DNA of 64,000 nt from a virus. Its lineage: Duplodnaviria > Heunggongvirae > Uroviricota > Caudoviricetes. The position numbers and the translations under genes are program-made. The notes beneath the pieces are model-generated. The model had not been told where the DNA came from and made no database searches. It saw only the letters and a list, made by a program, of their open reading frames with translations. Numbering within the stretch: position 1 is the stretch's first letter; each line of letters starts with the position of its first letter. Shown here one piece after another: positions 18,247 through 36,559 of this stretch. Location: the IMG/VR virus record IMGVR_UViG_2029527006_000005. One strand, written 5' to 3'.

Positions 18247-18255
18247 CCCTTTCTT

Positions 18256-19824: not shown

Positions 19825-19891
19825 AGTATTACTCCTTCGTTTCGATATAGATATAATAGCAAAAGGGCTGACATGTGTCAACCCTTTTTTA

Positions 19892-20555: not shown

Positions 20556-20567
20556 GGTAATCTCCCT

Positions 20568-20768
20568 TTAGTTATCGCATGAGATTACCTCTTTGTTCGT
20601 GTACTTCACTTTGTAGTATCCATTTAGTGAACGCCATTCGTAGATGTATGAGAGTATATTACCATCTAGGTCATCGTCTGTCAAGCCTGTAATTTCGGCG
20701 TGATGGGTTTCGTAATTGTCCTCATTGGGTTTAAGTCCCTTCAAGGTTACTCGTACTGTTATTGACAC
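20568..20768 (-). CDS. Hypothetical protein
   Basis: GGAG RBS, GTG start. Confidence 0.65.
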   Translation of the reverse strand: MSITVRVTLKGLKPNEDNYETHHAEITGLTDDDLDGNILSYIYEWRSLNGYYKVKYTNKEVISCDN

Positions 20769-21022
20769 GTGTACTCCTTTGTGATACCATCGAATTGCAT
20801 AATGATATTGTTTCCGTGCAGGATATATGTTACAGTACCGAATCGATCTTTAGCCACGAATAAACCGGGCTTGACTTCTTCGGCAACAACATGTTCGTTT
20901 GTGTCCACCAGCGAAGTGTTATCAATGATAAATCGAGTACTGAAACCATCAGCACTACAGATCAAGTCCTGTGCTAATACTGGAGTACTGAAGAGTGCAG
21001 CGAGTAAGAGTAAATGTTTCAT
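20759..21022 (-). CDS. Small exported protein
   Basis: Signal peptide MKHLLLLAALFSTPVLA; two Cys. Confidence 0.75.
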   Translation of the reverse strand: MKHLLLLAALFSTPVLAQDLICSADGFSTRFIIDNTSLVDTNEHVVAEEVKPGLFVAKDRFGTVTYILHGNNIIMQFDGITKEYTCQ

Positions 21023-21088
21023 CGTTTGGTCCTCTTTGGTTGTACTGATATAATAACAAAAAAGGCTGACATATGTCAACCTCTTTTT

Positions 21089-21607
21089 TTAATCTTCGTA
21101 AGTGAATGGTGTGATTGCATCGCTAATGTATTCAACAATAGCTAATGGATCGTCTTCACGTGCTGTAATCTCTGCTGTAGCTCTGTATGCGGCCTGTAGA
21201 GCGTTTTTAACTTTAGCCGGGGCTACCTCTTTAAGTTCTGCAATTAATCGCTTAGAATGGCGTACATCGCCTTTAAACGCTGCTTTCCAATCATCTTGTA
21301 AAGTACTGATAAGAGTTTTAGAATCTTTTGGCATTGGTTTCTGTACTTCTGGTTCTGGTGTTGGCTTACCACCCATTAAGCCTAGGGATTGGAAGTATCT
21401 TAGTTTCTCGTCTGGTTTCATTCGAGAGGTATCGACTAGTGTATCGGTTACTGTGTTTGCTTTACCTGCTGCCCCTGTTCCTTGATTACGGGAGCCACGC
21501 GATCCCTGTCCTGCGTTATGGCTATTACTGCGGCGGTTCTCATCGCTCCACTTGTCCGAGTGTCCAGCGAGAGTAGCACCTGATTTAGAGCGGAATTGAC
21601 CCGGCAT
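21089..21607 (-). CDS. Hypothetical protein with basic, disordered N-terminus
   Basis: AGGAG RBS before MPGQF. Confidence 0.8.
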   Translation of the reverse strand: MPGQFRSKSGATLAGHSDKWSDENRRSNSHNAGQGSRGSRNQGTGAAGKANTVTDTLVDTSRMKPDEKLRYFQSLGLMGGKPTPEPEVQKPMPKDSKTLISTLQDDWKAAFKGDVRHSKRLIAELKEVAPAKVKNALQAAYRATAEITAREDDPLAIVEYISDAITPFTYED

Positions 21608-21619
21608 AATTAATTCTCC

Positions 21620-21707
21620 TGTGCATGAATTATAGATATATTTATGCACCCTGTGGGTTAGCTTGTTTCTATGCGTATATAATAACAAAAGGGCTGACTC
21701 TCGTCAA
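21620..21707 (-). promoter_or_regulatory. Promoter-CCCACAGGGTG unit 3 (leader of 21089..21607)
   Basis: TTGACG-17-TATTAT, motif 21 bp downstream, overlaps GTGCAT..ATGCAC inverted repeat. Confidence 0.8.
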
Positions 21708-21923
21708 CCCATTTTTTACATGTATTTTAAATATAATCTGTCAAATGATTCTAATGCTACAACAGCGTTTGATGTTACAATTCTTTCCCTTCCACATCTT
21801 ACGGTGAAGTTCTGTCCGTCAAAAGTCATGATTACATCATTGATGTTTCGAATACGTTTCATTTGGTTCTTTCCAATATGTGCTACCCTATGGAAAGTAT
21901 TATACCAAATGATCCAATAGTGA

Positions 21924-22175
21924 TCAACGCTGATTTACAAAATCATTGTACTTTTCGTGAGACATTAAATGTAGTTGCTTTTCTTTGTCAATTACGATAC
22001 GCTCAGTTCGGGAAATATCCAGTACTTGGAATAGTCCGTTACTCAGTTTGCGAGCGTGGAGATCACCACTTATGAAACTGTTAGCTGCTTTGACAGCCTT
22101 CTCTACAATCTTCTTTTGCGGCTTGTAGTGCAGTTTCATGAAATTACCGTTGACTAATTCGACTTGCTTTTTCAT
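21924..22175 (-). CDS. ParE/RelE-like small protein
   Basis: 83 aa, LDISRTERIV...LMSHEKYN C-terminal pattern of a ParE-like family. Confidence 0.55.
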   Translation of the reverse strand: MKKQVELVNGNFMKLHYKPQKKIVEKAVKAANSFISGDLHARKLSNGLFQVLDISRTERIVIDKEKQLHLMSHEKYNDFVNQR

Positions 22176-22218
22176 TTTGGTTTCTCTTAAAGGTGGGGGA
22201 TTTCTCCCCCTGTGTTGG

Positions 22219-22590
22219 TTAGCTACGGGCGAGACTAGCAGCCAGTAGTGCGGCGGTGCGTGAGCGGCGAACAAGTACATTCACGTTATTACCCTTGCGA
22301 TCTTTCAGGGTGTAGCTGTGATTGTGCACTTGACGTGAGTCCACCAGCGGCAAACCCATAATATCACGCGGTTCTACTGGCTCAAGTGCTACGTCCATCA
22401 CTTCAGCCTGAAGCATTGCAGCAAGCTGTGCGACGGCCTCAGACTTAGGAGCTTCTACCGTGTATTGTACTTCCCAACGCTTACCAGCAGGAGCATCAGC
22501 ACCGTTATCAATGATCTTGCCGTCATAATCTACTTTAGCGTGTCGTGCATCGTTACGGGTTTTGCAGAACACAGATTTGATAGTAGCCAT
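22219..22590 (-). CDS. Hypothetical early protein
   Basis: GAGG RBS, own promoter. Confidence 0.8.
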   Translation of the reverse strand: MATIKSVFCKTRNDARHAKVDYDGKIIDNGADAPAGKRWEVQYTVEAPKSEAVAQLAAMLQAEVMDVALEPVEPRDIMGLPLVDSRQVHNHSYTLKDRKGNNVNVLVRRSRTAALLAASLARS

Positions 22591-22798
22591 TTTTGTACTT
22601 CCTCTTTGTGGTTGATGTAAGTATTATACTTTAATGTCGATTCGGTGTCTAGTACTTTTTACTTCTTTTTGATGCTCTTTTACTTCTTTGACAATCCTTT
22701 CTTGTTGGGGAATACTGTAAGTATTATACACTGTCCGGTAGATTGGTGCAACTGGTGTAATCATCTTTAAGTACTCCCCTTGTGTTTAAAGTATTATA

Positions 22799-23116
22799 TC
22801 ACAGTGAAGCGAGGGAACCAAGGAAAATCTCTGCTTCTTCCATCGTTACAACCCTTGCGTTCTGTCCGTTCAAAAAGATAGTAGCAATGTCTTTTTCTGC
22901 TCTGTGGCGGGTGATGTAACGTTTTATATCATTACGCCCTGATGCTGGTAAGTGGTTACCTTCCAAGTAGTAACCGCTGTAAATGCAATCTTTGCCTGTC
23001 CACGGATTCTTTACCATAATGGCAAAGTTACGATCAGAGCTACCCAGAGTACTATACATAGTATGACCAACTGGAGAGGTGTCGATTGTTTTTCGCATTG
23101 CTGAATGTAAAGCCAT
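22799..23116 (-). CDS. Hypothetical protein
   Basis: GAGG RBS. Confidence 0.75.
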   Translation of the reverse strand: MALHSAMRKTIDTSPVGHTMYSTLGSSDRNFAIMVKNPWTGKDCIYSGYYLEGNHLPASGRNDIKRYITRHRAEKDIATIFLNGQNARVVTMEEAEIFLGSLASL

Positions 23117-23217
23117 TTTTTAAATCCTCGTTTGTTTAAAGGTTCTTTCTCGTCTTGATGTAAGTATTATACAGTACTGTAAGAGGGAGTCAACAACTAT
23201 TTTCAAAATAAAAGTAC

Positions 23218-23340
23218 TTGACACCGCGATCTGTTTTTGGTATTATATATCCCATAGAGACAACTAACCCACAGGGTGGGATAATCTATCCAAATTTTAT
23301 AGTACTGTACAAATAAACAGGGGAGTGGTTAGCTCCCCAT
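23218..23340 (+). promoter_or_regulatory. Promoter-CCCACAGGGTG-LexA box-hairpin unit 4
   Basis: TTGACA-17-TATTAT; motif 23268; CTGTACAAATAAACAG 23305-23320; GGGGAG..CTCCCC hairpin. Confidence 0.85.
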
Positions 23341-23989
23341 TGTGTTACATTTTGCGGATTGCTTTCACGGTATCTTTTACAGATTTACCCGCTAACAAAA
23401 GTTCTTCAATCTTCGCGTACTGCTCAGTTGTCAGGTCTTCGCCCGTCTGTGCCAGTACTGCTTCGTATTGAGATTCTTTCATTTTCATTTCCTCGGTTGT
23501 TTGCTGTTGATGTAAGTATTATAAAGTACTCGCTCAGTAAATGCAAGTACTTTTAATCATTACGCCTCTCTTACACTACGATATGATCCTTTAATATCTT
23601 GCAGCTTTTTGACACGTTGCCACGCATCACCAGCCGAATAACCCCATTCACGCACGAGGGTTACACCACCAGATTTAAGAATCACTTCAAATACAAATTC
23701 TTTTTTCATAGTATCTTGATCCCCTCATAACCACCAGCGATGGCAGAATGGAAATCAATCTTTGTTTCGTGTGAGATCCATTTAGCCTTTAATACAGTAC
23801 CTACCGGATAGAAACTAGTAGCCCAATCCATTACTTCGGCGTGTTGTTCTTCTCGCTCTTTACGCTCAGTACTAACCAGCATTTTAGTAGTGAAGTTCGA
23901 AGTACTTACATCCAGAGAGTAGATAGACTATTTTTTTAATTCCTTGTTTGCTTAAGATGGGACTATTATATAATAGCCCCTGTGTACTG

Positions 23990-24529
23990 TCAAGCCTTAT
24001 CTTTTAGATAATCAGGTAAATCTGTATTCTGATAATCTAACTCTTTAAGTACTTGCTTATCCTTAGTACTGTTTGAGATAATATCAAAATCGTAGATTCT
24101 GATAAGTTTCCCGCCGTAGTTCCCTGCATCGCTGTTATGCGTTACACCTTGAGCAGTAAAGAAAGCGGCTAACTCTTTAGCAATCTTATGTAAGCCTTTA
24201 ACATTCCAGTACAGCCACAATTCAAAGCGATGTGCGGTCATTGTTTCGCGTTGGCTAAACTCTTTCTTAAACAGTTTCGCCAGCTTTTGAGTACAATACA
24301 CATTACACCAGTATTGCAGGTTCGGGATTGTTATCTCTACGTTGCTTGCGTGTTGTTCCTCTTTGAGTTCCACTGTCAAGGCGTACACTGATCGCCCGTA
24401 ATGCTCGGCCCACAGATAAGAGTTCGTACAGTAGAGACCAACACCATACTGCGTACTATGGATTTTTGCACCCAGATAACCCGGACGATGATCAAACTTG
24501 CTGGAGCCGTGATAAAGGGTAGTAATCAT
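23990..24529 (-). CDS. ADP-ribosyltransferase-like protein
   Basis: LYHGS...YGVGLYCT...AEHYG is the H-G-S / G-x-Y-x-T / A-x-x-Y pattern of PARP/ART folds. Confidence 0.55.
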   Translation of the reverse strand: MITTLYHGSSKFDHRPGYLGAKIHSTQYGVGLYCTNSYLWAEHYGRSVYALTVELKEEQHASNVEITIPNLQYWCNVYCTQKLAKLFKKEFSQRETMTAHRFELWLYWNVKGLHKIAKELAAFFTAQGVTHNSDAGNYGGKLIRIYDFDIISNSTKDKQVLKELDYQNTDLPDYLKDKA

Positions 24530-24585
24530 TTTGTGTATCTCGTTTCGTTTCAATGAATACATTATGCCAGTACTTGCAAAGTATG

Positions 24586-25074
24586 TCAACTGCTTTTGGA
24601 ATATTTCTTTTTCCATGTAAAGGCGGTTGCATATGATACATTTAATTCATTAGCTAGCCTTTGTATACCATAACCATTATAATAGGTTGTCTGAATGTAG
24701 TCTATGATTTCCGGTGTTAATTTACTACTGAAATTATTCATTCCCCATTGTTCACGCAATAAACCATTATCAGCCGCATGTTTTGTATTTTCTTGAACCG
24801 TCGCCCATTCAAGATTAGAATAATGATTATTTTGTTTATTTCCATCTTTATGATTGACAACGGTTTGATTTGGTGCTGCTGGTGGGAGAAAATTCAATGC
24901 TACCAAACGGTGTGCTTTGCAATTCTTTCCTTGACCTTCAAACCAAAGTTGTAGTATACTATAACCATCTTTATCGGTTGCTTGCTTACGTATGCGTCCT
25001 GTCTTGCGTGTTCGCACGTCGCCAAACTCTGACACCTCATAATTGCTATTCTCTTTAAGTACTTTCCATTCCAT
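24586..25074 (-). CDS. NUMOD4-HNH homing endonuclease
   Basis: YEVSEFGDVR (NUMOD4), HRLVA, VNHKDGNKQNNHYSNLEW (HNH), C-terminal HTH. Confidence 0.9.
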   Translation of the reverse strand: MEWKVLKENSNYEVSEFGDVRTRKTGRIRKQATDKDGYSILQLWFEGQGKNCKAHRLVALNFLPPAAPNQTVVNHKDGNKQNNHYSNLEWATVQENTKHAADNGLLREQWGMNNFSSKLTPEIIDYIQTTYYNGYGIQRLANELNVSYATAFTWKKKYSKSS

Positions 25075-25148
25075 AAAATATCCTTTTGTCAATCCCTTAT
25101 TAAGAATATTATATCACAAAAATAATCGATTGTCCCAAAAATAAATGC

Positions 25149-25270
25149 TTGACAGCCCACCAGCATTTTGGTATTCTATATCCCATAGAAACAATTAGCC
25201 CACAGGGTGCGGAAATGTATCTATAGGTTATAGTACTGTACAAATAAACAGGGGAGTCATTGCTCCCCTT
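25149..25270 (+). promoter_or_regulatory. Promoter-CCCACAGGGTG-LexA box-hairpin unit 5 (Chi in spacer)
   Basis: TTGACA-17-TATTCT; motif 25199; LexA box 25236-25251. Confidence 0.85.
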
Positions 25271-25274
25271 TGTG

Positions 25275-25604
25275 TTATTCTTCTGCGTCTAAATCCAGAT
25301 CCCCGTAGGCACTTTCCAGTAGTTCCCCTGTGTGATCATCAGCAAGGAAATTGTCTTCATAGTTAACGTCAACGCCGACAATGTAGAACTGGCGATCATC
25401 GGGATCATTAAAGTTAATTGATTGGATGTTAGCCATTACTGTATTGATACCCAATACGCCGCCGTCATCAGTAACAAAGTACTGATATTTTTCATAGCCG
25501 CCAGAGTTGAAACCGTAGTTAATATTTGCTACGCCGTCATCCAGTCGAATCGCCTGAGAGATAAATTCATTTTCGAAGTTGGCTTGAACGTTGGAGATAG
25601 TCAT
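25275..25604 (-). CDS. Acidic hypothetical protein
   Basis: Cassette A upstream. Confidence 0.8.
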   Translation of the reverse strand: MTISNVQANFENEFISQAIRLDDGVANINYGFNSGGYEKYQYFVTDDGGVLGINTVMANIQSINFNDPDDRQFYIVGVDVNYEDNFLADDHTGELLESAYGDLDLDAEE

Positions 25605-25695
25605 TGTACTTTCCTTAATTAGTGGGGGAAGATGTTTTCCCCCTATGCAAATCATTATACGCTTATCAGGGAGTAATGCAAGTACTTTTTAGTAC

Positions 25696-26031
25696 TTAAT
25701 TACGCCGGGATTCTGCCAGGAAATCATTCTGCCACTCGCAGAGTTCTTCCATGTTTTCTTTGTCGTGTAAATCACTTGCCGCTTGCAATATGATCAATTT
25801 AATCATATCATTGATTGTCAGGTCGTCAGTGTTTACGTCATAACCTTTGAGTACTTCACGCATATCATCTAACTGATATGATCCAACCTGTCCGAGTAAC
25901 TGACACAACGCTTTACTGCTAGCTTCTGCCTTTTCGCGGGTAGTTGCTAACTCATACACCATATCGTATGATGGGAACACCAGCACCAGCTTATTACAAT
26001 CTGACTGCCATTCTAAATCAGGTTCACGCAT
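25696..26031 (-). CDS. Acidic hypothetical protein
   Basis: Cassette A upstream. Confidence 0.8.
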   Translation of the reverse strand: MREPDLEWQSDCNKLVLVFPSYDMVYELATTREKAEASSKALCQLLGQVGSYQLDDMREVLKGYDVNTDDLTINDMIKLIILQAASDLHDKENMEELCEWQNDFLAESRRN

Positions 26032-26110
26032 GACCTTTTCCTTAATTAGTGGGGGAAGTTGTTTCCCCCTATGCAAATCATTATACGCTTATCAGGGAGT
26101 AATGCAAGTA

Positions 26111-26341
26111 CTATTTGAATGAATTTACGATATAATTTACAGCGTCATCATTCAGTTCTGCCATAGCATTTTTGATCACTTCACGCAGTTTTTCATCTGC
26201 GGCTAACTGGCTGCTGTTGCTGCCGTTCAACGCTTCACGCCATGTATCTTCATGTGCCTGTGAAATGTTGCGTACCTGTGAGAGTCGAGAAGACAGTAAG
26301 ATACGAGTCAGTACTTGAGCGATGATTTCACGTTGTTCCAT
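26111..26341 (-). CDS. Hypothetical protein
   Basis: GAGG RBS. Confidence 0.75.
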   Translation of the reverse strand: MEQREIIAQVLTRILLSSRLSQVRNISQAHEDTWREALNGSNSSQLAADEKLREVIKNAMAELNDDAVNYIVNSFK

Positions 26342-26404
26342 TTGGTAGTTCCTCTTTGCTTAAGATGGGACTATTATATAATAGTCCCGTTTAGTTGTCC
26401 AGTA

Positions 26405-26872
26405 CTATTTCACATTAATTTCCAGATATTCAGGCTTAATGCGATCTTGATTGTAAAGCTCATTTGCTTCTGCTAATGTCTGCACTTGGACACCAGCCGC
26501 TTTAAAATAGCGTGTAAGCGTTTCTAAGAGCTTTTCCGGTGTATTGGTAGTTTTACGTGTCTTAATCTTGTCATGACCCATAGCATAGTACTGCTTGCGT
26601 GGAATCGTGCTAATCGCTGAGTAGTACGGTTCCATTTCCAGCTTATCAGTGATATTATCATCACTGCCAAACTTCATGCCGTGGATTGCAAAAGTCATAC
26701 GCATAGTGTCATTTTCGCGAATATTTGAACTGCAATCTTTTTGATCACGAGTCATACCAAACGCCAGACAAACATCGCCACCCAATGGCAGACGTCCAAC
26801 GTGTACCCAACCGTTAGGGAATACTGCGAGGAAAGCGGCTGATACTTTTGCGGTGAACTCTTTGCTATTCAT
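26405..26872 (-). CDS. Hypothetical protein
   Basis: Cassette A upstream. Confidence 0.8.
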   Translation of the reverse strand: MNSKEFTAKVSAAFLAVFPNGWVHVGRLPLGGDVCLAFGMTRDQKDCSSNIRENDTMRMTFAIHGMKFGSDDNITDKLEMEPYYSAISTIPRKQYYAMGHDKIKTRKTTNTPEKLLETLTRYFKAAGVQVQTLAEANELYNQDRIKPEYLEINVK

Positions 26873-26956
26873 AATCTCTTTCTCTTAATTAGTGGGGGAA
26901 GATGTTTCCCCCATGCAAAACATTATACAGTACTGAAAAAGTAATGCAAGTACTTT

Positions 26957-27127
26957 TTAGATATTAAAGGAGTCAGCATAACGTTGCAATGACTGCCAAC
27001 TAATGTTATAATGCTTTGCTGCTCGCATGATTGATTCGGTTTCTGTGCACTGCGTTTTCTGCTCAATATGGAAAGCATAATCAAGAGCACCTTCGTAATC
27101 GCTTGAATCAAATTCTTTCTCATCCAT
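26957..27127 (-). CDS. Small hypothetical protein (56 aa, MDEKEFDSS...)
   Basis: Read manually; GAGG RBS; preferred over track ORF 26923..27177. Confidence 0.65.
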   Translation of the reverse strand: MDEKEFDSSDYEGALDYAFHIEQKTQCTETESIMRAAKHYNISWQSLQRYADSFNI

Positions 27128-27194
27128 TGCTTTGTCCTCTTTGTTAAGTTAGAAGTATTATAACACAGTAAACACATAAAGCAAGAACTATTTC

Positions 27195-27289
27195 AGTACT
27201 ATAATATAACAGACAGACCATCGCACCCTGTGGGTTAGTAGCTTATCTGCCAATGACTATATAATACCGCATTGGCAGTTTGGTGTCAA
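27195..27289 (-). promoter_or_regulatory. Promoter-CCCACAGGGTG unit 6
   Basis: TTGACA-17-TATTAT, motif 26 bp downstream, then AGTACT; leader resembles unit 1. Confidence 0.8.
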
Positions 27290-27438
27290 TCCTTTTTATC
27301 ATCTTTTTTATCAGATAAGAAATCAGGTAATTTAGTACTTGGATTATCCCAATCAATTTCGTTATAATGATTAGTGCCGTTAATTTCATCCAGTACTCGA
27401 ATTGTTTCTTTTACCGTTTCGATTGTAACCTTTGCCAT
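27286..27438 (-). CDS. Small hypothetical protein
   Basis: Start MAKVT after GGGGG; cassette B upstream. Confidence 0.65.
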   Translation of the reverse strand: MAKVTIETVKETIRVLDEINGTNHYNEIDWDNPSTKLPDFLSDKKDDKKD

Positions 27439-27506
27439 GTTGCCCCCTGTTTGCTGTACTGATATAATAACAAAAGGGCTGACATTAGTCAACCCCTTTT
27501 AAAACT

Positions 27507-27932
27507 TTATTGATTTGACAAACGGGCATCCAGTGCAATGCGTACCTCGTTTAATGAGTCGATGATGCTTCCAGTAGTTTGTCCTAACTGGTTATACATC
27601 CAGTCCTCAGAAGTAACAAGACGATCCATTTCTGAAAGTACTTTCTCAGCCGCTTTCAGTTTGTCATGCCATTCATTCATTTGATTGTACTGGCGTACTG
27701 TGTAAGAATCACCAGCCAGATCTACAGGTACTTTAAACACCAGAATCTGACGGGCTTGCTTATCCATATCTTTGAACAGATCGGATGACTCTCTGAAAGT
27801 ACTGTCAACAATAGTACCAGTAAGTTTATCGTAATCGATAAACACTTGCGTTTCACCGATCAGCCCTTCCGCACGAATGGTAGGGGAGTTAGCGTCGTTC
27901 GCGAAACCGGTCATGTTAACTTTGTTGCTCAT
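27507..27932 (-). CDS. Hypothetical protein
   Basis: Cassette A upstream. Confidence 0.8.
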   Translation of the reverse strand: MSNKVNMTGFANDANSPTIRAEGLIGETQVFIDYDKLTGTIVDSTFRESSDLFKDMDKQARQILVFKVPVDLAGDSYTVRQYNQMNEWHDKLKAAEKVLSEMDRLVTSEDWMYNQLGQTTGSIIDSLNEVRIALDARLSNQ

Positions 27933-28015
27933 GGGACTTTCCTTAATTAGTGGGGGAGGTTATCTCCCCCTATGCAAAACATTATACGCTATTCAGAGAG
28001 TAATGCAAGTACTTT

Positions 28016-28321
28016 TTACAAGAAAGATACCAGCGAGGATTTAACAATAACCTCCGCTGTTACTTCGTCGTCTACTTCGGTCACGCACTTAAGAGTAACG
28101 CACCAATCGCCACCAGCAAAGTACCACGTATGGGGCTGATCACCTTCCTGATATGAGTTCTTATCTTTCAGGTCGGAACCGTCAAACGTTGGCATACCTT
28201 CCTCAAAGGCGTACAATTCAGCCTCTGCCAGATCCTTAGCCAGAATCAAACGCTTAAGGTTGGTTTCATATTCACCAATACGCTGCGTGATGTGAGCTAC
28301 GAACAGTTTGGATTTTAACAT
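28016..28321 (-). CDS. Hypothetical protein
   Basis: Own sigma70 promoter. Confidence 0.75.
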   Translation of the reverse strand: MLKSKLFVAHITQRIGEYETNLKRLILAKDLAEAELYAFEEGMPTFDGSDLKDKNSYQEGDQPHTWYFAGGDWCVTLKCVTEVDDEVTAEVIVKSSLVSFL

Positions 28322-28393
28322 TTTGTTTCTCTTTGCTTAAGTGATGTAAGTATTATAAAGTACTCGCAAAGTATATGCAAGTACTTTTATTAC

Positions 28394-28630
28394 TTACTCC
28401 ACGTTATCCCCGATCATGTTTGCAGAAAAACGAATGATCTCATATACTGCACGTAATGATTGACCACCGATACAAGTATCGACCAGATCCCCCGCTGAGT
28501 TGTACTTTTCCAGTGTATAACCACCAGCAACAGGTTGCACTTTATAACGATACTTTGCACCCATCGCAGACAGCTTGTTATTCAGTACTGACAGGTAATG
28601 ATCAACTTCGGTACGGGTTACTTTAGCCAT
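28394..28630 (-). CDS. Hypothetical protein
   Basis: Cassette A upstream. Confidence 0.75.
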   Translation of the reverse strand: MAKVTRTEVDHYLSVLNNKLSAMGAKYRYKVQPVAGGYTLEKYNSAGDLVDTCIGGQSLRAVYEIIRFSANMIGDNVE

Positions 28631-28721
28631 GATTCTATTCTCTTAATTAGGAGGGGAACCATTTCCCCTCTCTATGTAAAACATTATACGCTCTTTGGAA
28701 TACTTTGCAAGTACTTTTTAC

Positions 28722-29084
28722 TTAATGTTTAACTTCGTTATATACTTTAACACTACGGGCATCAATTACTAACTGACTATAATTTGAAACTATATTTTTA
28801 AAGAATGGAACGTTTTTATACATGATTTGCACACGTTCCTGTGTCAAGCGACGAATTAATAAAATCAATTCATATTTCTTTTGGGTATAATATGCCTGTA
28901 ATACAGTGTCAAGATACGCCGATTGTTCTGGAGTACTTTGTCCAAGTTCAACACAACGCTTGACAACAGTCTCGATTGAGTCTAGTATCTCACTTCTTAC
29001 CATACGGTTATCACCAATTAAGATATGGTGTACTGCCCACATTTCAACATCTGTGTGTTTGGTTGTATATGCTGGCTGGTGCAT
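28722..29084 (-). CDS. Hypothetical protein
   Basis: Own sigma70 promoter. Confidence 0.75.
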   Translation of the reverse strand: MHQPAYTTKHTDVEMWAVHHILIGDNRMVRSEILDSIETVVKRCVELGQSTPEQSAYLDTVLQAYYTQKKYELILLIRRLTQERVQIMYKNVPFFKNIVSNYSQLVIDARSVKVYNEVKH

Positions 29085-29164
29085 GATAGTATCTCTCTTC
29101 GCTTAATTGATGTAAGTATTATAAAGTACTCTCACACTATTTGCAAGAGTACTTTTGATAATAA

Positions 29165-29539
29165 TTAATTCAAGTAACGAATGAATCCTTGCGAGTCCAG
29201 AGCAGAGAAACCATTCTCTACAAAGATATTGCCGCGTATACCTTTGGCTACTGCGTTATAACTGGCAGACTTGAACACGTTCCCCTCAAAGTCTACACTA
29301 CCGCAGGAGCTACGCCCGTATTGCATGATCTGCCCCGTTTCGTTACTCAGTTCGACGCGATCAATCTTCCAGTACTTCGGAGACTTGCGAACTTCAAAGG
29401 CGATTGCATACGGCATCTTATCAGGGCTAAACTGTACATCTTTGCGACGGATCATTTCTTCCAACATCGCCACCAGTTCAACAGGTACAGTCTCAGCACT
29501 TGCACCACGTCCGAACAATACACGCTTAAAAGTAACCAT
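29165..29539 (-). CDS. Hypothetical phage protein (C-terminal GNVFKSASYNAVAKGIRGNI)
   Basis: GAGG RBS; motif typical of a small phage family. Confidence 0.8.
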   Translation of the reverse strand: MVTFKRVLFGRGASAETVPVELVAMLEEMIRRKDVQFSPDKMPYAIAFEVRKSPKYWKIDRVELSNETGQIMQYGRSSCGSVDFEGNVFKSASYNAVAKGIRGNIFVENGFSALDSQGFIRYLN

Positions 29540-29814
29540 CTTTATATCCTCTGTTTGGTTGATGTAAGTATTATATTAGAGTACTAAAACGAATGCAAGT
29601 ACTTTTGATAATAAAATCCCAGCTATTACAATAAGCAGTACCGCACCCATTGCACCGAAACCGATCCACATTGCCGCCAATAAAGAACCAACAGGATTTT
29701 GTCGAATTTCATTAATCATTTTGTGTTACCCTTCGTTTGGTTGATATAGGTATTATACTCTATTCCCAAAGTACTGCAAGCATTATTTTCAAATTATTTT
29801 CATTAAAAAAGTAC

Positions 29815-29998
29815 TTGACAATATCGCAGTACTTTGGCATAATACAGTCATTGAAACAAATAGCCCACAGGGTGGGGGAATCCGTCTGTTGATGTAAATG
29901 ATTATCATTCTCAAGTACTGAATACTTCTCCGCACCCTATGGGTCACGCCTTTGTTCTGGCTTAAAAGTATTATCTCATTAAGCCAGTACTTTGTCAA
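29815..29998. promoter_or_regulatory. Convergent pair of promoter-CCCAYAGGGTG units 7 and 8 around a Fur box
   Basis: Plus TTGACA-17-CATAAT, minus TTGACA-17-GATAAT; Fur-like 29894-29912 (16/19 to GATAATGATAATCATTATC). Confidence 0.85.
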
Positions 29999-30357
29999 CG
30001 TTTTATTTCTTCGTAAGGATTTGGGCGTAACGTTGGCGGCATCTCTAAATGTGAGAAGTTAAACGAGTTCCCACGGTTCGCACGTCCGATCATTTGGATC
30101 TGATTAGGGTAGAATCCTGTTAGCCAATCATCTACCCAGATGATCCCCACGCCTTCATTGATGCGTTCTACCAGTACTTTACGCTTTTGTTTACGCTTCT
30201 TTATTCTCCGCTGATGGGCGTTCGTTATCCCATTGTGGTGCGGTGTAGTGTAACGATTTTTCACAACCTTCTCCCAACACTTTTTCAACCCGTTCTCTTT
30301 CGAATTGATTTGCCTCAGTTCTGGATAATAGTTTATCATACTTTGGAGGCGTGTCAA
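29995..30357 (-). CDS. Basic hypothetical protein (start uncertain)
   Basis: ORF track; overlaps alternative 30191..30397. Confidence 0.5.
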   Translation of the reverse strand: MTRLQSMINYYPELRQINSKENGLKKCWEKVVKNRYTTPHHNGITNAHQRRIKKRKQKRKVLVERINEGVGIIWVDDWLTGFYPNQIQMIGRANRGNSFNFSHLEMPPTLRPNPYEEIKR

Positions 30358-30442
30358 CTACTTTTTCAATCTCATTCAGTACTTGACATTGATTCATTTT
30401 AAAGCTCCTGTAAGCCCCTATGCGGGGCTTTAACTTAAAGGG

Positions 30443-30685
30443 TTAGCAGTACAAGGATTCTTTATTCCAAGCCCCTGCAATGGGTTTTAGAGCGGTAGGA
30501 TCGAGTGCTATCACCTCTTTGCGGAAAACAATATAATTGATTTCCTTGTGATATACTACCCGCTCATACATTTTCCCGCCTACAATGAAACATACATACC
30601 CGCTCCAGTGTGGTTTATCACCTACTGTTACCATAGAGCGACGGGCGGTAGTGTTTGGGTCGATGAGTTGGTCAATAGTTCGCAT
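30443..30685 (-). CDS. Hypothetical protein
   Basis: Start MRTID after GAGG. Confidence 0.75.
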   Translation of the reverse strand: MRTIDQLIDPNTTARRSMVTVGDKPHWSGYVCFIVGGKMYERVVYHKEINYIVFRKEVIALDPTALKPIAGAWNKESLYC

Positions 30686-30750
30686 TGCTTTTCCTCTTTG
30701 CTTAATGTAGGGATATGATACCATATCCCCGTAATGTGTCAAGTACTTTT

Positions 30751-31131
30751 TTATACTGCTACAGATGTAACAATACGGCAATCATCACCAAGTACTTCTA
30801 CAATTTCTTTCAAAGTCAAGGTAAATTTTACCTTCCCGTTCGCTTTCAGTACTTGCACCTCATTAGGCCAGATGCCACCGCAACGGAAATAGTAGTCACG
30901 GCAAAACTTCAAAAGAGCTTGACAAAGAAACGCATCTTTGTTAAGTTCACGGCGATTAACTACGCGGGTAGTGATCCCCTCCGCTTTGTAGTCTGCCATT
31001 GTTTCTTTTGCGTCTTTGCTGCTAGTCGCTTCGCCAACGTCAGCCCATCCATAAGTAGGCACGTATTCCTGTACCATCTTAACAGTACTGAATTTGTTAA
31101 AGGTCTGTGCTGGAGTGATTTGATTAGGCAT
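30751..31131 (-). CDS. Hypothetical protein
   Basis: Own promoter; strand consistent with neighbours. Confidence 0.75.
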   Translation of the reverse strand: MPNQITPAQTFNKFSTVKMVQEYVPTYGWADVGEATSSKDAKETMADYKAEGITTRVVNRRELNKDAFLCQALLKFCRDYYFRCGGIWPNEVQVLKANGKVKFTLTLKEIVEVLGDDCRIVTSVAV

Positions 31132-31215
31132 AGTAATATTCTCTTAATAGTGTTTCGTTTCGATAAAGTCATTATGCCAGTACTCGATCAGTATGTCAAG
31201 TACTGGAGTAAAACT

Positions 31216-31419
31216 TTATACGCCGTAGATCAAATTACTTGCTTTCCACTTCCCATCTACTTTACGATGAGTCTCGATAAACATGTTATTGATTGGTGAA
31301 CGATACCCGATCAAGTCACAACCGTTTCGTGTTGCGGAGATCTTAGCACCTTTCTCAGTCAGACCAGTTTCATTGAATACTGACATGTAAACAAAACCCC
31401 ATACCTTTTGCATCTTCAT
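31216..31419 (-). CDS. Hypothetical protein
   Basis: Cassette A upstream. Confidence 0.75.
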   Translation of the reverse strand: MKMQKVWGFVYMSVFNETGLTEKGAKISATRNGCDLIGYRSPINNMFIETHRKVDGKWKASNLIYGV

Positions 31420-31522
31420 TTCCTTAATTAATGGGGGAAGATGTTTCCCCCTATGCAAAACATTATACAGTACTGCAAAAGTAATGCAAGTACGTTCTTC
31501 AAATAATATTCAGAAAAAGATG

Positions 31523-31646
31523 TTGACAAGCTGGTGGAGTACTGGCATAATACACGCATAGACAAAAACTAACCCACAGGGTGCAGCAGTCCGTCTGTAT
31601 GATTTAGTACTGTACAAATAAACAGGGGAAGCAATTGCCTCCCCTT
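31523..31646 (+). promoter_or_regulatory. Promoter-CCCACAGGGTG-LexA box-hairpin unit 9 (Chi in spacer)
   Basis: TTGACA-17-CATAAT; motif 31573; LexA box 31610-31625. Confidence 0.85.
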
Positions 31647-31650
31647 CGTG

Positions 31651-31884
31651 TTATTCTTTCAGAAGTTCAAAGTCGCCGTGGGTCAAATCTTCTGGTTCCC
31701 AATCGATCACGTTCCCGATCACGTTCCCGCTTTGAATGTCAACCACTTCACGGGAGGACTCAAAAATTTCGTATTGCCCAGTAGTTAAACCTTCTAGTAC
31801 TTGTTGTTCTGTCAGTGATGAATCCACCAGCTTGATTGACACGGAAACCATTTCTTTACGCACGAAACCAATTGAGATTGCCAT
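31651..31884 (-). CDS. Hypothetical protein
   Basis: Cassette A upstream. Confidence 0.75.
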   Translation of the reverse strand: MAISIGFVRKEMVSVSIKLVDSSLTEQQVLEGLTTGQYEIFESSREVVDIQSGNVIGNVIDWEPEDLTHGDFELLKE

Positions 31885-31966
31885 GATTCTTTTCCTTAAT
31901 AGTGGGAGAGAACTATTTCCCTCCCTATGCAAAACATTATACAGTACTGAATGAGTAATGCAAGTA

Positions 31967-32227
31967 TTATCTCATAGATCTATGCCAACAATTTCTAGGA
32001 TCTCTTTTGAAAGTACTATCATGATCCGCTTGACATTCTACGCAGTACTTGCAACCCTTAACAGCTTCACGCCTACGCTCAGGAATAGCCCTAGAACAGT
32101 CTAGGCAGTGCGTTCTACTTTCGGTAGTACTATCCCCTAGCTGTTTCCTTGCGTGGCGTATGGCGGCGTTTAGAACGGCCTGAATCTCTTCTTGCTCTGC
32201 ACCATCTTTTGCAAAACCTACTGCCAT
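31967..32227 (-). CDS. DksA/TraR family C4 zinc-finger protein (YbiI-like)
   Basis: MAVGFAKDGAEQEEI; CLDC...IPERRREAVKGCKYCVECQ. Confidence 0.9.
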   Translation of the reverse strand: MAVGFAKDGAEQEEIQAVLNAAIRHARKQLGDSTTESRTHCLDCSRAIPERRREAVKGCKYCVECQADHDSTFKRDPRNCWHRSMR

Positions 32228-32283
32228 AAATCCCCCAATAAAAAAGGCTACCAAGTGGTAGCCTTTTGTGTTAAGCTGTTAAG

Positions 32284-32907
32284 TTATTCAGCGAAAGCGG
32301 CTGCTGCTGCTTCTTTATCCACTGCGTGAGCAAGGATAAAATCTTTATGGGTAGTGTACCCGCCAGCGGTCATAGCGTCTTTGAGTACCTGCACCATGTT
32401 ACCAGAAGTTGGCATGTTGTACTGTTTGCCGTCAACCGTTACAGGGATGCGGGTAAAGGTGTATTTTGGCTCTTTGTTAACATCGCCGTACTTCTTAGCG
32501 ATTGCCGCCGTTGCTGCCGCTTCTGCCGCTTCGAGGTCAAGACCCATGCCGTTTACAGTGTCCATGAGGAACTTGAGCATGTTTTCTTTTTCTACTTTGA
32601 TTTCTTCGTCACGTTTGGCGATTTCAGCGAGGCGATCCGCTTTCTTCGCTTCACGGCGTTGTGCTGCTTCTTCTGCCGCCTGTGCCGCCGCTTTTGCGTT
32701 CTCTTTGAGTACTTCTTTCGCGTCTTTAACTGCGAGGGAGAAAGTCATACCCAATTTAGATACGCCGTCTTTGTCGCCGCCAATCTTCGCGAGGATAATC
32801 GCGAGTGCTTTGTGATCACCAGCTTCGAGAGCGGATTTAAGGGTTACACGTGATGCTGCTTCTGCGTTGTTGGTAGCGGTGTTTGCGTTAGTGTTGATAG
32901 TAGTCAT
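32284..32907 (-). CDS. Ala/Lys-rich coiled-coil protein, possible H-NS-like nucleoid protein
   Basis: Coiled coil plus a C-terminus that aligns by eye to the H-NS DNA-binding domain; strong promoter and terminator. Confidence 0.5.
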   Translation of the reverse strand: MTTINTNANTATNNAEAASRVTLKSALEAGDHKALAIILAKIGGDKDGVSKLGMTFSLAVKDAKEVLKENAKAAAQAAEEAAQRREAKKADRLAEIAKRDEEIKVEKENMLKFLMDTVNGMGLDLEAAEAAATAAIAKKYGDVNKEPKYTFTRIPVTVDGKQYNMPTSGNMVQVLKDAMTAGGYTTHKDFILAHAVDKEAAAAAFAE

Positions 32908-33305
32908 TTGTATTTCCTCTTAAAGTTTAGTTAGGTTGTTTGCTGTCTACGTGGTCATTATCTCAATTTCCCACCAGCTTGTCAAGTACTTTTTAAAACT
33001 CTTTTCAATCTTTCTTTCCGAGTCAGCACCAGATATTCATACGACTTACTGGCTGTCTACTTAGGGAAGTTAATCTGTCCCGCCGCTCTATGTGATACAG
33101 TATGCCTGTTTCCGTTCCATCCGTCAAGTACTTTTTAAGAGATTGACAATCTTTTTTTCATTTTCCTTATATTTCAGTACTAAAGCATAACGCCACCAGC
33201 AAGCCTATAACGCGTTTAAAGTACTGCCCTAATATGTTTGCTTGCATTATTCGTTGAACGGCTTATAGAGCGATACAGAGCGTTTAAATTCATTTGAAAA
33301 AGATG

Positions 33306-33430
33306 TTGACAGTACTGATCAAATCCTGTATTATGTATCTCATGAAAACAAGCTAACCCATAGGGTGCAGCAGTCCGTCTATAGGATTTAGTACTGTACA
33401 AAATAACAGGGGAAGCAATTGCCTCCCCTT
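33306..33430 (+). promoter_or_regulatory. Promoter-CCCATAGGGTG-LexA box-hairpin unit 10
   Basis: TTGACA-17-TATTAT; motif 33357; CTGTACAAAATAACAG 33394-33409. Confidence 0.85.
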
Positions 33431-33439
33431 GTGTTATCA

Positions 33440-33886
33440 TTACGCCCAGATATCACCGCCGATCTTCTGGCAAATGCTAGTACTGACATAGTTGCAATTC
33501 ATAAGCTCATTGGTTGTGAACAATCCACTGTAGGAGTCTGCCCCGATCTTGATACGCTTTTCAACGTGAATACGGGAACAGAAAAATACTTGCTTACTGG
33601 TAGTAACCCAAATGCTAGTGCCTAATTCAAAGTGCTGTTGTTCTTCTGGTAGTTGGCGAGTCTCTATCTCGATATGATACCAGTCTTGCAACGGACGGCC
33701 TTTGTAAAAATTGAAGTGATCAATGACCGTTTCCAGATTCGTTTCAGTATCTACTACCGACACGATCACGGCCTCTTTCTCTTCCATTTGCAGTACTGCC
33801 ATTGCTTCATGTACAGTGTTTGCGGTTACGTTAGCATCGGTTACGTTGCCGTCTGGAGTCTTGAAAGTCAGGTAGTAGATAGTCAT
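33440..33886 (-). CDS. Hypothetical protein
   Basis: Cassette A upstream. Confidence 0.8.
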   Translation of the reverse strand: MTIYYLTFKTPDGNVTDANVTANTVHEAMAVLQMEEKEAVIVSVVDTETNLETVIDHFNFYKGRPLQDWYHIEIETRQLPEEQQHFELGTSIWVTTSKQVFFCSRIHVEKRIKIGADSYSGLFTTNELMNCNYVSTSICQKIGGDIWA

Positions 33887-33969
33887 TTTCGTTTCTCTTA
33901 ATAGTGGGGGAAGATGTTCCCCCTATGCAAATCATTATACGCTTATCAGGGAGTAATGCAAGTACTTTC

Positions 33970-34587
33970 TTATGCAATTCCCAAAACTTCGCCCGCCTGA
34001 TTTACTTTAAAATCGTATTCATTAGCTTCGATAGTAGACCAAAGTGCTTCATCACTTGATTGATAATCATTCTCATCATCAAGCTCTTTATAAACTTTGC
34101 TTGACAAGTCGCGAATTGTATCAGTCAAAAACTCTTCCAGTACTTCACTCGCTAAAACTTGTTTGTGTGTAAAGTCGATATTATAATCAAGCTCTACGCT
34201 ACCGCTTACAGTGTTTTCGTGACTGTAGCGGGAAGATCCACGGTTTACTTTCGCGTGAATCTCTTCATCGGCAATGATACGATGCAAGCGACGGAATTTA
34301 GACCACGCTTTAACCTTGCGTAAAAACTTCTCAAGATTGATATAGTAGTCAGTACTGATAGATGCACCGTCGCCCTGTGAGCAAAAACCAGACCATTCGA
34401 TCTCTGCATTATAAATGCCGTATTCAGTGTCTAAATCCGCTTTCCACTGATCAGTAATATCTACAGACCAATAAGGGGTAGAGTCCTGATTCTCTAACGC
34501 TCGCATAATCTCAATTGCCTGTGCTTTCTGTGCTTCATTCAGTGCGTCATAAGATACTGCTTTGATAACGTCGATGATGTTTTCCAT
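33970..34587 (-). CDS. Acidic hypothetical protein with WSGFCSQGDGAS motif
   Basis: Motif shared with a widespread phage/plasmid family of unclear function. Confidence 0.75.
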   Translation of the reverse strand: MENIIDVIKAVSYDALNEAQKAQAIEIMRALENQDSTPYWSVDITDQWKADLDTEYGIYNAEIEWSGFCSQGDGASISTDYYINLEKFLRKVKAWSKFRRLHRIIADEEIHAKVNRGSSRYSHENTVSGSVELDYNIDFTHKQVLASEVLEEFLTDTIRDLSSKVYKELDDENDYQSSDEALWSTIEANEYDFKVNQAGEVLGIA

Positions 34588-34671
34588 AATGCTTTCCTTA
34601 ATGAGTTGTTTCGTTTGTATGTAAGTATTATAAAGTACTCGCAGAATAAAGCAAGTACTTTTAATACTAAC

Positions 34672-34914
34672 TTACAAAGTACCGTTAGCGATCATTTCGT
34701 CGGCATTCATAAAGGCCGTTACTTTGTATTCTGAAATATCCACACAAGGGCAAACAAAACGCTCAAGGTATACAATAGTGCAGTACTGATAACCCTCACG
34801 CTCAAAGAAGCGACTAAGCAGATCGTGCAAGTGGTTGGCGTTATCTTCTGATACTACAACCGCATAAACAATCGCCTTACCTACTGTTGGAGTCATTTTA
34901 ACAATGCGTAACAT
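34672..34914 (-). CDS. Hypothetical protein
   Basis: AAGGA RBS, own promoter. Confidence 0.75.
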   Translation of the reverse strand: MLRIVKMTPTVGKAIVYAVVVSEDNANHLHDLLSRFFEREGYQYCTIVYLERFVCPCVDISEYKVTAFMNADEMIANGTL

Positions 34915-35065
34915 GTTATTTCCTTAATGTGTTTGTGTGTCTCGTTTCGATGTAGCTATTATGCAATAGGTAGAAATAGAATGCAAGTACTTTCTCAATT
35001 CTTTTTTTATCCTTCCTTATATACATATAGTACTAAATTATTTTCGATTTTCTTTTAAAAAGATG

Positions 35066-35264
35066 TTGACTCCAGCACAGGAAACCCGTATAATGTTTTA
35101 CATGGAGGCGAAACTCCCGAACCCACAGGGTGCGGAAATGTATCATATGAGCGAAATGATAATCATTCGCATTTAAAAAATTAAGGACAGACCCCCGCAC
35201 CCTGTGGGCTTGAGCATTGTTCTTGCTATGTGTATATAATATCAAAGTACTGGCAACGTGTCAA
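35066..35264. promoter_or_regulatory. Convergent pair of promoter-CCCACAGGGTG units 11 and 12 around a Fur box
   Basis: Plus TTGACT-17-TATAAT, minus TTGACA-17-TATTAT; AATGATAATCATT core at 35155-35167. Confidence 0.85.
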
Positions 35265-35406
35265 CAACTTTTTTGCAAAAATAAATGCTTGACATTCCCC
35301 CCAGATATTGAGACAATAGCCGTGAACAAAAAAAGCTGATTTGCGATACTGCCGGGAATTATATCTCGACGCGGTAGGCTAGCCAATGGAAAAAACAGGC
35401 CAGTAC

Positions 35407-35526
35407 TGCAAACGATAATCATTATCATTCTCATCAGCAAATGAGAATCAATATCATTCGCAAATGCAAATGAGAACTATTCGCACCTGAGAACCATTCT
35501 CAAAAGGAGAACGCTTATCATTCGCA
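35407..35526. promoter_or_regulatory. Cluster of Fur-box-like sites
   Basis: 35414-35432 matches 17/19 on the minus strand; further AATGAGAATC/ATCATTCGC repeats. Confidence 0.7.
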
Positions 35527-35779
35527 CAAACGCAACTAGCACAACTACGCCCAAAATCCGTCCAGAGTACAGGACAAGTACACCCAAAATCCATCCAACA
35601 TTTCTCACCCTAAAAAGTAACCAGTACTACAATAGTCTTCTCATTCTTGTGGAGTAACTGTTGCAGTACTGGAAAGCGAATATAGTTCATTTCTTACAGT
35701 GGGGATTCTCCCTTCTTATTATTCTTACCTTTACTGTCCTCTATACACTAGAGGCTCATTTGAATTCACTTAATATCAG

Positions 35780-36363
35780 TACTGAATACGTGCACAGTAA
35801 GCAGTACTGTTTAGCCTTTTATCTTACAAGAGGTCAGGAGTGTCCGACTTCACCATCGCCCTATGACAACTATTATGCCTAAAACCCACCAGCATGTCAA
35901 CAACTATTTTTCAGTACTGATACTGTTAATTCATCCAGTACTGGTATTATGTACATACACGTACACGCAGGGTGGATTCCCAGCTATGACATGTTACCAT
36001 AGTTCCGCTAACGTGTCAAGTACTTTTGGAGGATCGGCTAACGCGTTGGTGAGTACTCGAACATTGGGCTGAAGGTTGGTAGGTACTCCAAAATTTCTAG
36101 GATCGAGATTTAGGATGGAGTACTTTCCAGATTTTAGCTGAAGGGTGGATGGTACTTTCCCTGAAAGGTGAAAGGGCTTTTACAAAACAAGGTACAAGTA
36201 CTTTTCAGTACTTTATACTTCTCTTTAAAGAGAAGATATAGCGGAAGGGGTCAGTACTGAAGGGTGTGACGCGTGAGTGCTATACTGTAGCTCTCTATGA
36301 TAGTTGCATCTGTAACTAATCCCCTGAGCTTTTTAAAAATAAAAATACTGTACACCTTAACAG
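35780..36363. promoter_or_regulatory. Three further LexA (SOS)-box-like sites
   Basis: TACTG-N10-CAGTA at 35780-35799 and 35921-35940; CTGT-N8-ACAG at 36348-36363. Confidence 0.65.
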
Positions 36364-36559
36364 TTGGGTATTTTTACAGGTGTTGAATCCTTTCGATAAG
36401 CTCCTGTGAGTCGCAATCTACAGGAGCGACACCTGTACTATGTAGTACTGAAGTCTTGTCTACGGGCTTCCTATGCGTTCTGGTGTGGTATGGTATAGGA
36501 TGTTCTTTGTGGTGTCTATAGGGTAAATATGTTATAATGATAATTATATAGGGGGATAT

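Follow-up and report, generated by a model that had tools for sequence, protein, structure and literature searches.

LexA-type boxes behind orphan antisense promoters in the terminal-repeat homologue of a RaK2-like jumbo phage

Candidate LexA operators and their fit to the SOS box

A 64,000-nucleotide stretch of DNA from a tailed phage (IMG/VR record IMGVR_UViG_2029527006_000005, hereafter the window) carries a set of palindromic boxes that resemble the SOS box, the operator of the enterobacterial repressor LexA. A sequence-only reading of this DNA had listed seven of them, and all were found again at their positions: CTGTACAAATAAACAG exactly at 23305, 25236 and 31610, CTGTACAAAATAACAG at 33394, TACTGAATACGTGCACAGTA at 35780, TACTGTTAATTCATCCAGTA at 35921 and CTGTACACCTTAACAG at 36348. 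The first two sequences together give four matches, while 0.14 are expected. We rate it as slightly better than an even chance that the boxes are true LexA operators of the enterobacterial type, which would act as roadblocks or occupancy sites. The evidence consists of the box sequences, the anatomy of the cassettes that hold four of them, the pattern of conservation in related phages and the enrichment of the boxes.

The nearest records to the window are RaK2-like jumbo myoviruses, with Klebsiella phage fENko-Kae01 as the closest (~76% identity across part of the query); next come the Salmonella phages Munch, 7t3 and SE_PL and Erwinia phage Hallingskeid. fENko-Kae01 is strictly lytic and has a direct terminal repeat of 19,736 bp with 50 small genes (PMC11218385). 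Window positions 35250-36127 align in reverse orientation to positions 83-960 of this phage, and the outer end of the repeat is therefore placed at ~36,210. In lytic RaK2-like jumbo phages the direct terminal repeat is ~20 kb long and, judged by homology, the region from ~16.4 to 36.2 kb is its counterpart. This region is packed with small minus-strand genes behind strong predicted sigma-70 promoters, and its G+C content is 0.40-0.42 compared to 0.34-0.37 to its left. The listed sequencing runs containing the window DNA, none of them recorded as RNA, are ant fungus-garden metagenomes, probably its source, and because of this origin the repeat boundary is set by homology only. We infer that this region would be terminally repeated in the window phage and may enter the host first.

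The operator of enterobacterial LexA is CTG-N10-CAG, ideally TACTGT-N8-ACAGTA with an AT-rich spacer. CTG-N10-CAG is present in all seven boxes and CTGT...ACAG in five of them, while the box at 35921 has CTGT...CCAG and the one at 35780 CTGA...ACAG. For scoring, a heterology index (HI) matrix was built here from 18 E. coli operators (PMC3009722 Table 4); it is not the original Lewis matrix. The cassette box (23305, 25236, 31610) has an HI of 8.5 and its variant at 33394 of 10.2, while values of 5.5, 8.1 and 11.4 were obtained for the boxes at 35921, 36346 (the 20-mer around 36348) and 35780. All seven values (5.5-11.4) fall into the leave-one-out range of the 18 known operators (0.6-12.6, median 6.2), which gives the claimed likeness to enterobacterial SOS boxes a quantitative footing. 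The cassette core is identical to the E. coli tisB/istR-2 operator in 15 of 16 positions and shares CTGTAC with the sulA operator, and E. coli SOS boxes and cassette boxes have the TACTGT-N8-ACAG geometry and the AT-rich spacer in common. Unlike the E. coli sites, the cassette boxes do not lie over the promoter, and they end in CAGGG, fused to a terminator stem.

Four orphan cassettes and the remaining boxes

The first four boxes belong to paralogous copies of one ~135-bp cassette, all on the plus strand and antisense to the genes, and therefore count as one event. The order of elements is an A/T-rich upstream element, a promoter (TTGACA, a spacer of 17 and TATTAT or CATAAT), a leader with the motif CCCAYAGGGTG, AGTACT, the box and a G+C-rich hairpin. 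The boxes indeed lie downstream of orphan antisense promoters, and the earlier description of a position about 50 bp past the start site and overlapping a terminator hairpin proved accurate: each box begins at +53 or +54 from the predicted start site (span +53 to +72), and its last two bases are the first two of the terminator stem. With this span none of the four boxes overlaps the -35, -10 or +1 element, the usual place of an SOS box. All four hairpins are called as terminators on both strands, and the minus-strand open reading frame (ORF) stops 6-10 nt away. They show the hallmarks of a bidirectional intrinsic terminator (G+C-rich hairpin, U-tract on both strands, gene 3′ end), and the cassette terminator also ends the converging gene. 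The slot behind the leader reads TACTGTACAAATAAACAGGG in these four antisense orphan modules, with the bidirectional terminator directly after it. The 10-bp spacer of the box is the reverse complement of the U-tract tail of the sense terminator (GTTTATTTGT), and the final AG of the box lies inside the stem. Eight more units in the repeat have the same promoter and leader, followed by other sequences.

Cassette 1 (23218..23348) comprises the -35 element at 23218-23223, the -10 element at 23241-23246, the leader motif CCCACAGGGTG at 23268-23278, AGTACT at 23301-23306, the box 20-mer at 23303-23322, the hairpin at 23320-23338 and a T-tract up to 23348; the converging minus-strand ORF of 47 aa ends at 23345. 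In cassette 2 (25149..25279) the -35 element starts at 25149 and is followed by the -10 element (25172-25177), the leader motif (25199-25209), the box 20-mer (25234-25253) and the hairpin (25250-25269), and the converging minus-strand ORF 25275..25655 ends 6 nt from the hairpin. Cassette 3 (31523..31655) has its -35 element at 31523, a Chi site within the promoter spacer (31530-31537), the -10 element at 31546-31551, the leader motif at 31573-31583, the box 20-mer at 31608-31627 and the hairpin at 31624-31645, where the minus-strand ORF 31651..31932 ends. The fourth copy (33306..33439) starts with a -35 element at 33306, continues with the -10 element (33329-33334), the leader motif (33357-33367) and the box variant TACTGTACAAAATAACAGGG (33392-33411), and closes with a hairpin (33408-33429) at which the minus-strand ORF 33440..33886, encoding a DUF7300 protein, ends. 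Derivation of the cassette from the host was considered and rejected, since no similarity was detected in 5,426 E. coli genomes.

The best LexA-type box of the window, TACTGTTAATTCATCCAGTA (35921..35940), spans positions -36 to -17 of a plus-strand promoter predicted with an extended -10 element (TGgTATTAT, 35942-35950) and lies 21 bp upstream of the -35 element of the first sense promoter (35900-35872, minus strand). By its position it is a classical promoter-overlapping predicted operator near the inferred genome end. The promoter at 35942-35950 faces the inferred repeat end; in a concatemer, or in the right-hand copy of the repeat, it would face a plus-strand cluster of eleven genes. This box is kept in fENko-Kae01, Munch and the related contig G001, and in each of these, as well as in phage CBB, a second, overlapping box has been added beside it over the -10 element; in the window, the second box of this outer-end pair is decayed (HI 12.2). 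The weak box TACTGAATACGTGCACAGTA (35780..35799) is probably a chance occurrence; an indel has removed it in fENko-Kae01 and Munch. The box TACTGTACACCTTAACAGTT (36346..36365) is located just outside the inferred repeat boundary (~36210), upstream of a plus-strand gene cluster that begins at 36560; fENko-Kae01 has CAA instead of CAG at this site, while G001 retains a box there (AACTGTTGTGTTGTACAGTA, HI 7.9). A further LexA-like box, AACTGGTTATACATCCAGTC (27586..27605, HI 6.7), was not listed in the sequence-only reading; it lies inside the minus-strand ORF 27507..27932 and is identical in G001 (position 7802).

A tRNA scan and an Rfam search at gathering thresholds gave no matches in the window. 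For ten flanking proteins Pfam returned only DUF7300, a weak match to DUF4298 and an HNH/NUMOD4 endonuclease, and most genes of the terminal repeat have no assigned function. The HNH/NUMOD4 homing-endonuclease gene (24589-25092, minus strand), whose product has a C-terminal helix-turn-helix, directly adjoins cassette 2.

Enrichment and conservation in related phages

Scoring by heterology index against shuffled sequences that preserve AGTACT, as had been suggested, yielded seven sites with HI ≤ 8.5 in the window (five after collapsing paralogs) compared to 0.38 expected; an order-5 Markov model, which reproduces the AGTACT count, gives an expectation of 0.52. The bare CTG-N10-CAG pattern is not enriched in the window (16 vs. 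10.3 ± 3.1). The decisive enrichment comes from the relatives and not from the window alone. When unique sites with HI ≤ 9.5 were compared region by region to an order-4 Markov model, eight were counted in 22 kb of Hallingskeid (0.69 expected), three in the repeat of fENko-Kae01 (0.40 expected) and four in the window repeat (0.38 expected), whereas the repeat region of Asteriusvirus G17 has none (0.66 expected) at equal AGTACT density.

A spacing control on the real sequences counted unique instances across the repeats of the clade at gaps from 0 to 16. CTGT-N8-ACAG occurs nine times and one to three times at other gaps, except for gap 15 with six instances, which have G+C-containing, random-looking spacers. 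Similarly, ACTG-N10-CAGT is present 12 times and zero to four times at other gaps. The pattern TACTGT-N9-CAG clusters in the terminal or early regions of Hallingskeid, fENko-Kae01, Munch, G001, Yersinia phage fHe-Yen9-04 and CBB. Of the distinct matches in Hallingskeid, 10 fall within the first 17.5 kb and 8 within the remaining 348 kb; in CBB the 22.4-kb repeat holds six distinct matches and 333 kb of unique sequence hold five, and in fHe-Yen9-04 every match lies at most 36 kb from an end. Only scattered matches are found in G17, 121Q and EJP2. A de novo ranking of gapped palindromes put terminator stems and ACCC-N3-GGGT on top, with CTGT-N8-ACAG in fifth place in Hallingskeid only. In a single-linkage grouping of the unique boxes the fixed arms chain all of them together.

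The cassette box is conserved in fENko-Kae01, Munch, G001 and Hallingskeid, and the 16-mer occurs exactly in five related genomes beside five different hairpins. Across 12 orphan cassettes from five genomes the longest invariant run is TACTGTACAAATAAACAGGGG, that is the box plus GGGG, while the hairpin exists in five versions with compensating substitutions. One cassette copy without AGTACT (a 2-bp difference) retains the box, and two one-base variants of the 16-mer occur without a hairpin. In Hallingskeid the 16-mer or a one-base variant of it is found in three settings, namely between a leader and a second promoter (TACTGTACAAATGAACAGTA), across a -35 element (TACTGTACAAATAACCAGTT) and upstream of a terminator/promoter hybrid. 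Leaders of this phage also precede the boxes TACTGTACATATGTACAGGA and TACTGTATAAAAGAACAGGT, which have different spacers and occupy the same slot. In total, 22 kb of Hallingskeid contain 10 sites with HI ≤ 9.5. A leader precedes six of these, which represent five distinct 20-mers; they either lie before a terminator or a second promoter or overlap a -35 element.

fENko-Kae01, Munch and CBB have overlapping pairs of boxes ~220-290 bp from the outer end of the repeat, immediately upstream of the first sense promoter; the homologous pair of G001 lies close to the end of its contig. In fHe-Yen9-04 a homologous orphan antisense unit (6351-6388) carries two overlapping near-consensus boxes (HI 2.7 and 5.4) but lacks a hairpin, and the converging gene g010 has its stop codon 18 nt away. 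Asteriusvirus G17 has AGTACT at 6.4 per kb and the same promoter style, yet lacks such sites throughout its 25-kb repeat region; in its orphan unit the sequence is AGTACTGAAAAAGTAACGGGG, that is AGTACTG, an A-tract and a terminator without CAG. A relative that loses the CTG-CAG spacing and keeps the terminator had been named beforehand as evidence against LexA. Such a relative thus exists; nevertheless, G17 is devoid of all boxes of this type, and we therefore take this as a difference between lineages rather than as a refutation.

Candidate ligands, rival explanations and implications

The known hosts of the relatives are Klebsiella, Salmonella, Erwinia, Yersinia and Pectobacterium. No homologue with a LexA_DNA_bind or Peptidase_S24 domain was found in four related phage genomes, which makes the host LexA the natural candidate ligand. 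In the recurrent module a strong promoter is followed by a leader of ~50 nt, which contains CCCAYAGGGTG and AGTACT, and then by a fixed operator slot. This slot appears to be used by a second type of box: Fur-like boxes with the core AATGATAATCATT (29897-29909 and 35155-35167) lie between two face-to-face promoter pairs, in the slot of the plus-strand member of each pair (29864, 35122). The offset after the leader motif is 23 nt for the Fur-like and 25 nt for the LexA-type box. An array of Fur-like boxes is present at 35411-35522, in a gene-free stretch near the repeat end. As two different host-repressor motifs share one slot, the slot is more readily understood as protein-binding DNA than as an RNA signal.

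In an unstressed cell the host LexA would occupy the slot. Bound at the box of an orphan cassette, it would stop the polymerase at ~+35 to +40, i.e. 35-40 nt into the orphan transcript and after the leader; seen from the sense gene, it would lie on the U-tract side of the terminator. Once LexA is cleaved, the full ~95-nt terminated RNA could be made, plus any read-through in either direction. Operators tens of bases downstream of the start at which DNA-bound repressors stop elongation are established for LacI, PurR and proteins of the CodY/CcpA type. The cassette boxes resemble them in their distance from the start and differ in standing just before an intrinsic terminator. We know of no natural site at which LexA acts as a roadblock, and LexA binding and roadblock action in these phages are predictions from the features described above. 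SOS-gated antisense read-through, which the sequence-only reading had proposed, is not implied by the layout of the window, where loss of LexA would let the polymerase reach the bidirectional terminator only; it would fit fHe-Yen9-04 better, with its box pair and no hairpin before the 3′ end of g010.

Several points weigh against LexA operators of this kind. The spacing-specific signal is weak in the window alone, where the half-site spacing control is only suggestive. The placement of the four cassette sites downstream of the start is unusual for LexA. With a terminator immediately behind it a roadblock seems superfluous, and a strong promoter generally drives polymerase past such a block. 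Conservation is lacking for two of the seven sites (35780 and 36348), and four form one paralog family, so the seven cannot be treated as equal sites. The asteriusviruses, which infect E. coli, manage without such boxes. Moreover, the spacer of the main 16-mer is invariant, which LexA itself does not require; a second constraint must therefore act on it, be it the sense U-tract, an RNA function or gene conversion, and the U-tract of the sense terminator is the most economical candidate.

A rival view is that the box is a by-product, i.e. only the AGTACTG word joined to the A/U-tract and the stem base of a bidirectional terminator, with copies kept identical by paralogy or gene conversion. The sequence-only reading had raised this composition as a caveat, and it does explain how the box is built, given the complementarity of the spacer to the sense terminator tail, the last AG within the stem, the paralogy of the four window copies, the hairpin adjoining most exact copies of the 16-mer, and G17 with AGTACTG, A-tract and terminator but no CAG. 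It does not explain why the box persists beside five different hairpins and after loss of AGTACT, why Hallingskeid has one-base variants without a hairpin and different-spacer boxes in the same slot, or why tandem pairs exist; in addition, the enrichment is spacing-specific, and G17 has no sites despite the same AGTACT load. We therefore regard a mere by-product as unlikely. Slightly less probable still is an RNA element, in which the cassettes would be genes for ~95-nt small RNAs and the invariant single-stranded UACUGUACAAAUAAACAG before the terminator hairpin a seed or Hfq-binding region. The lack of an ORF between promoter and terminator, a spacer whose invariance would suit a seed, and centroid folds that leave the box unpaired between leader hairpin and terminator in three of the four copies (in the copy at 33394 the last bases of the box pair at the hairpin base) are in line with this idea. 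Folding is not clearly better than that of shuffled sequences (z -0.6 to -2.3), though, no Rfam family matches, and palindromic arms with variable spacers, tandem overlaps and boxes over a -35 element or upstream of promoters are features of DNA sites.

If the boxes are protein-binding DNA, the protein might be another one, either a phage-encoded dimeric factor or a different host DNA-binding protein with LexA-like half-site geometry, and SOS would not be involved. The lineage-specific distribution of the boxes is what a phage-encoded factor would lead one to expect, and the many terminal-repeat genes without assigned function leave room for it. The boxes nevertheless match the full LexA consensus including the TACTGTAT/ATACAGTA arms and the AT-rich spacer, the four relatives yielded no LexA-like domain, and the unrelated lytic phage T5 also has near-consensus boxes in its first-injected DNA, so that we consider another ligand about as improbable as the RNA element. 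The same low probability is assigned to a LexA sponge, i.e. boxes that bind LexA without local regulation. Replicating DNA with ~6-7 sites per repeat and two repeats per genome would titrate LexA, of which a cell contains ~1,300 molecules (PMC6590174), and derepress the SOS regulon without RecA. The number of sites and the location of several of them inside genes or at non-operator positions would agree with titration. Local control is indicated instead by the constant position of the slot behind leaders and by the box pairs that overlap promoters near the end of the repeat, and the sites are concentrated in the repeat rather than spread genome-wide. Operators of the LexA type remain our preferred reading.

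Parallels to known systems were found for several of these arrangements. Colicin operons carry tandem overlapping LexA operators, and the box pairs of fENko-Kae01, Munch, G001, CBB and fHe-Yen9-04 are similar to them in that two boxes share flanking bases (junction CAGTACTG) next to or over promoter elements. They differ in being located in the repeat of a lytic phage and not in a plasmid toxin operon, and the window has the second box only in decayed form. The temperate phage GIL01 has a promoter, P1, that is repressed directly by host LexA together with the phage protein gp7 (PMC4551915). As in GIL01, host LexA rather than a CI-type repressor would act on the phage's own promoters, which for the phages considered here is a candidate role only; GIL01 differs in being temperate, in its Gram-positive host, in its Bacillus-type box and in its need for a co-repressor, while the present phages are strictly lytic. 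No gp7-like partner has been identified in them, and no search for one was made.

T5 is a further parallel in being lytic and in having a long direct terminal repeat with sigma-70-driven pre-early genes, which its record annotates as the first-entering DNA. Non-coding control regions of its first-step-transfer DNA (AY543070) contain two near-consensus boxes, TACTGTATAAATATACAGTA at 9409 (HI 0.74), inside the annotated injection stop signal, and CACTGTATAAATATACAGGG at 6211 (HI 6.1), between divergent promoters. Each of the two boxes adjoins a sequence resembling a DnaA box. T5 belongs to an unrelated phage family and has neither the AGTACT load nor the CCCAYAGGGTG units, so LexA-type boxes, as predicted here, recur in the repeat DNA of two unrelated lytic phage groups. 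A literature search revealed no paper linking T5 and LexA.

The AGTACT word itself is strongly over-represented in the window (262 vs. 22 expected), and relatives carry 4-7 copies per kb. It occurs in all three codon phases (73/29/42), and codon choice is biased towards it: of 133 Ser-Thr pairs, 73 are encoded as AGT-ACT (21 expected), and GTA-CTn is used for 58 of 114 Val-Leu pairs (23 expected); selection therefore acts on the DNA. GGTACC and CGTACG are absent from the window, and sampled hexamers containing CCWGG are very rare. Pairs of AGTACT 18-22 bp apart are part of the promoter architecture (e.g. 29810-29843, 26929-26954, 31179-31204), one copy abutting or overlapping the -35 element (AGTAC-TTGACA) and the other providing the TG of the extended -10 element (cAGTACTGnTATAAT). 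SlmA (GTGAGTACTCAC) was ruled out as the reader of AGTACT, as the flanks disfavour G/C at those positions. Just inside the inferred boundary (~36210), a motif ending in GG(T/A)(G/A)GTACT is repeated in tandem, in four to five imperfect copies (36020-36160), which may form a packaging or end-recognition array. Terminator/promoter hybrids were observed on the minus strand at 18254-18225, 27499-27472, 19888-19861, 21087-21058 and 21710-21691. In these the -35 element TTGAC lies within a terminator-like hairpin (GGGTTGAC-loop-GTCAGCCC) and the T-tract extends into the spacer before TATTAT; one element would thus end one transcript and start the next. Chi (GCTGGTGG) is present 22 times in the window (0.84 expected). 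Eighteen copies lie in the repeat homologue (16216-35893), 15 of these on the minus strand, several inside promoter spacers (e.g. 31530, 25157, 35886), and RecBCD entering from the inner-boundary side would meet them in active orientation.

That LexA controls mobile elements is textbook knowledge where temperate phages, colicins and integrons are concerned; for strictly lytic phages it is not, and our literature search found no description of LexA boxes in RaK2-like or other strictly lytic phages. A wider proposal, which we hold to be rather improbable as a whole, is that RaK2-like jumbo phages and, independently, T5 wire the transcription of their terminal repeats to global repressors of the host. 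Operators of the LexA or Fur type, in the jumbo phages placed in a fixed slot behind a leader, would turn strong promoters into sensors of DNA damage and iron status by way of roadblocks. The same repeat holds the dense, polar Chi sites, and attack of RecBCD on the incoming end would load RecA, cleave LexA and switch the units, so that the phage would sense the attack on its own genome. If the host LexA does occupy a fixed slot in the repeat units of jumbo phages, these would tune the first minutes of expression to the DNA-damage state of the host or, alternatively, time themselves by the damage that they inflict on it. Given the Fur-like boxes in the same slot and the LexA-type sites in T5, repeat DNA of this kind could be built on such a plan in general. 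Among the cultured relatives are fENko-Kae01 on Klebsiella aerogenes and Munch on Salmonella, and the proposal would have a bearing on the combination of such phages with SOS-inducing antibiotics.

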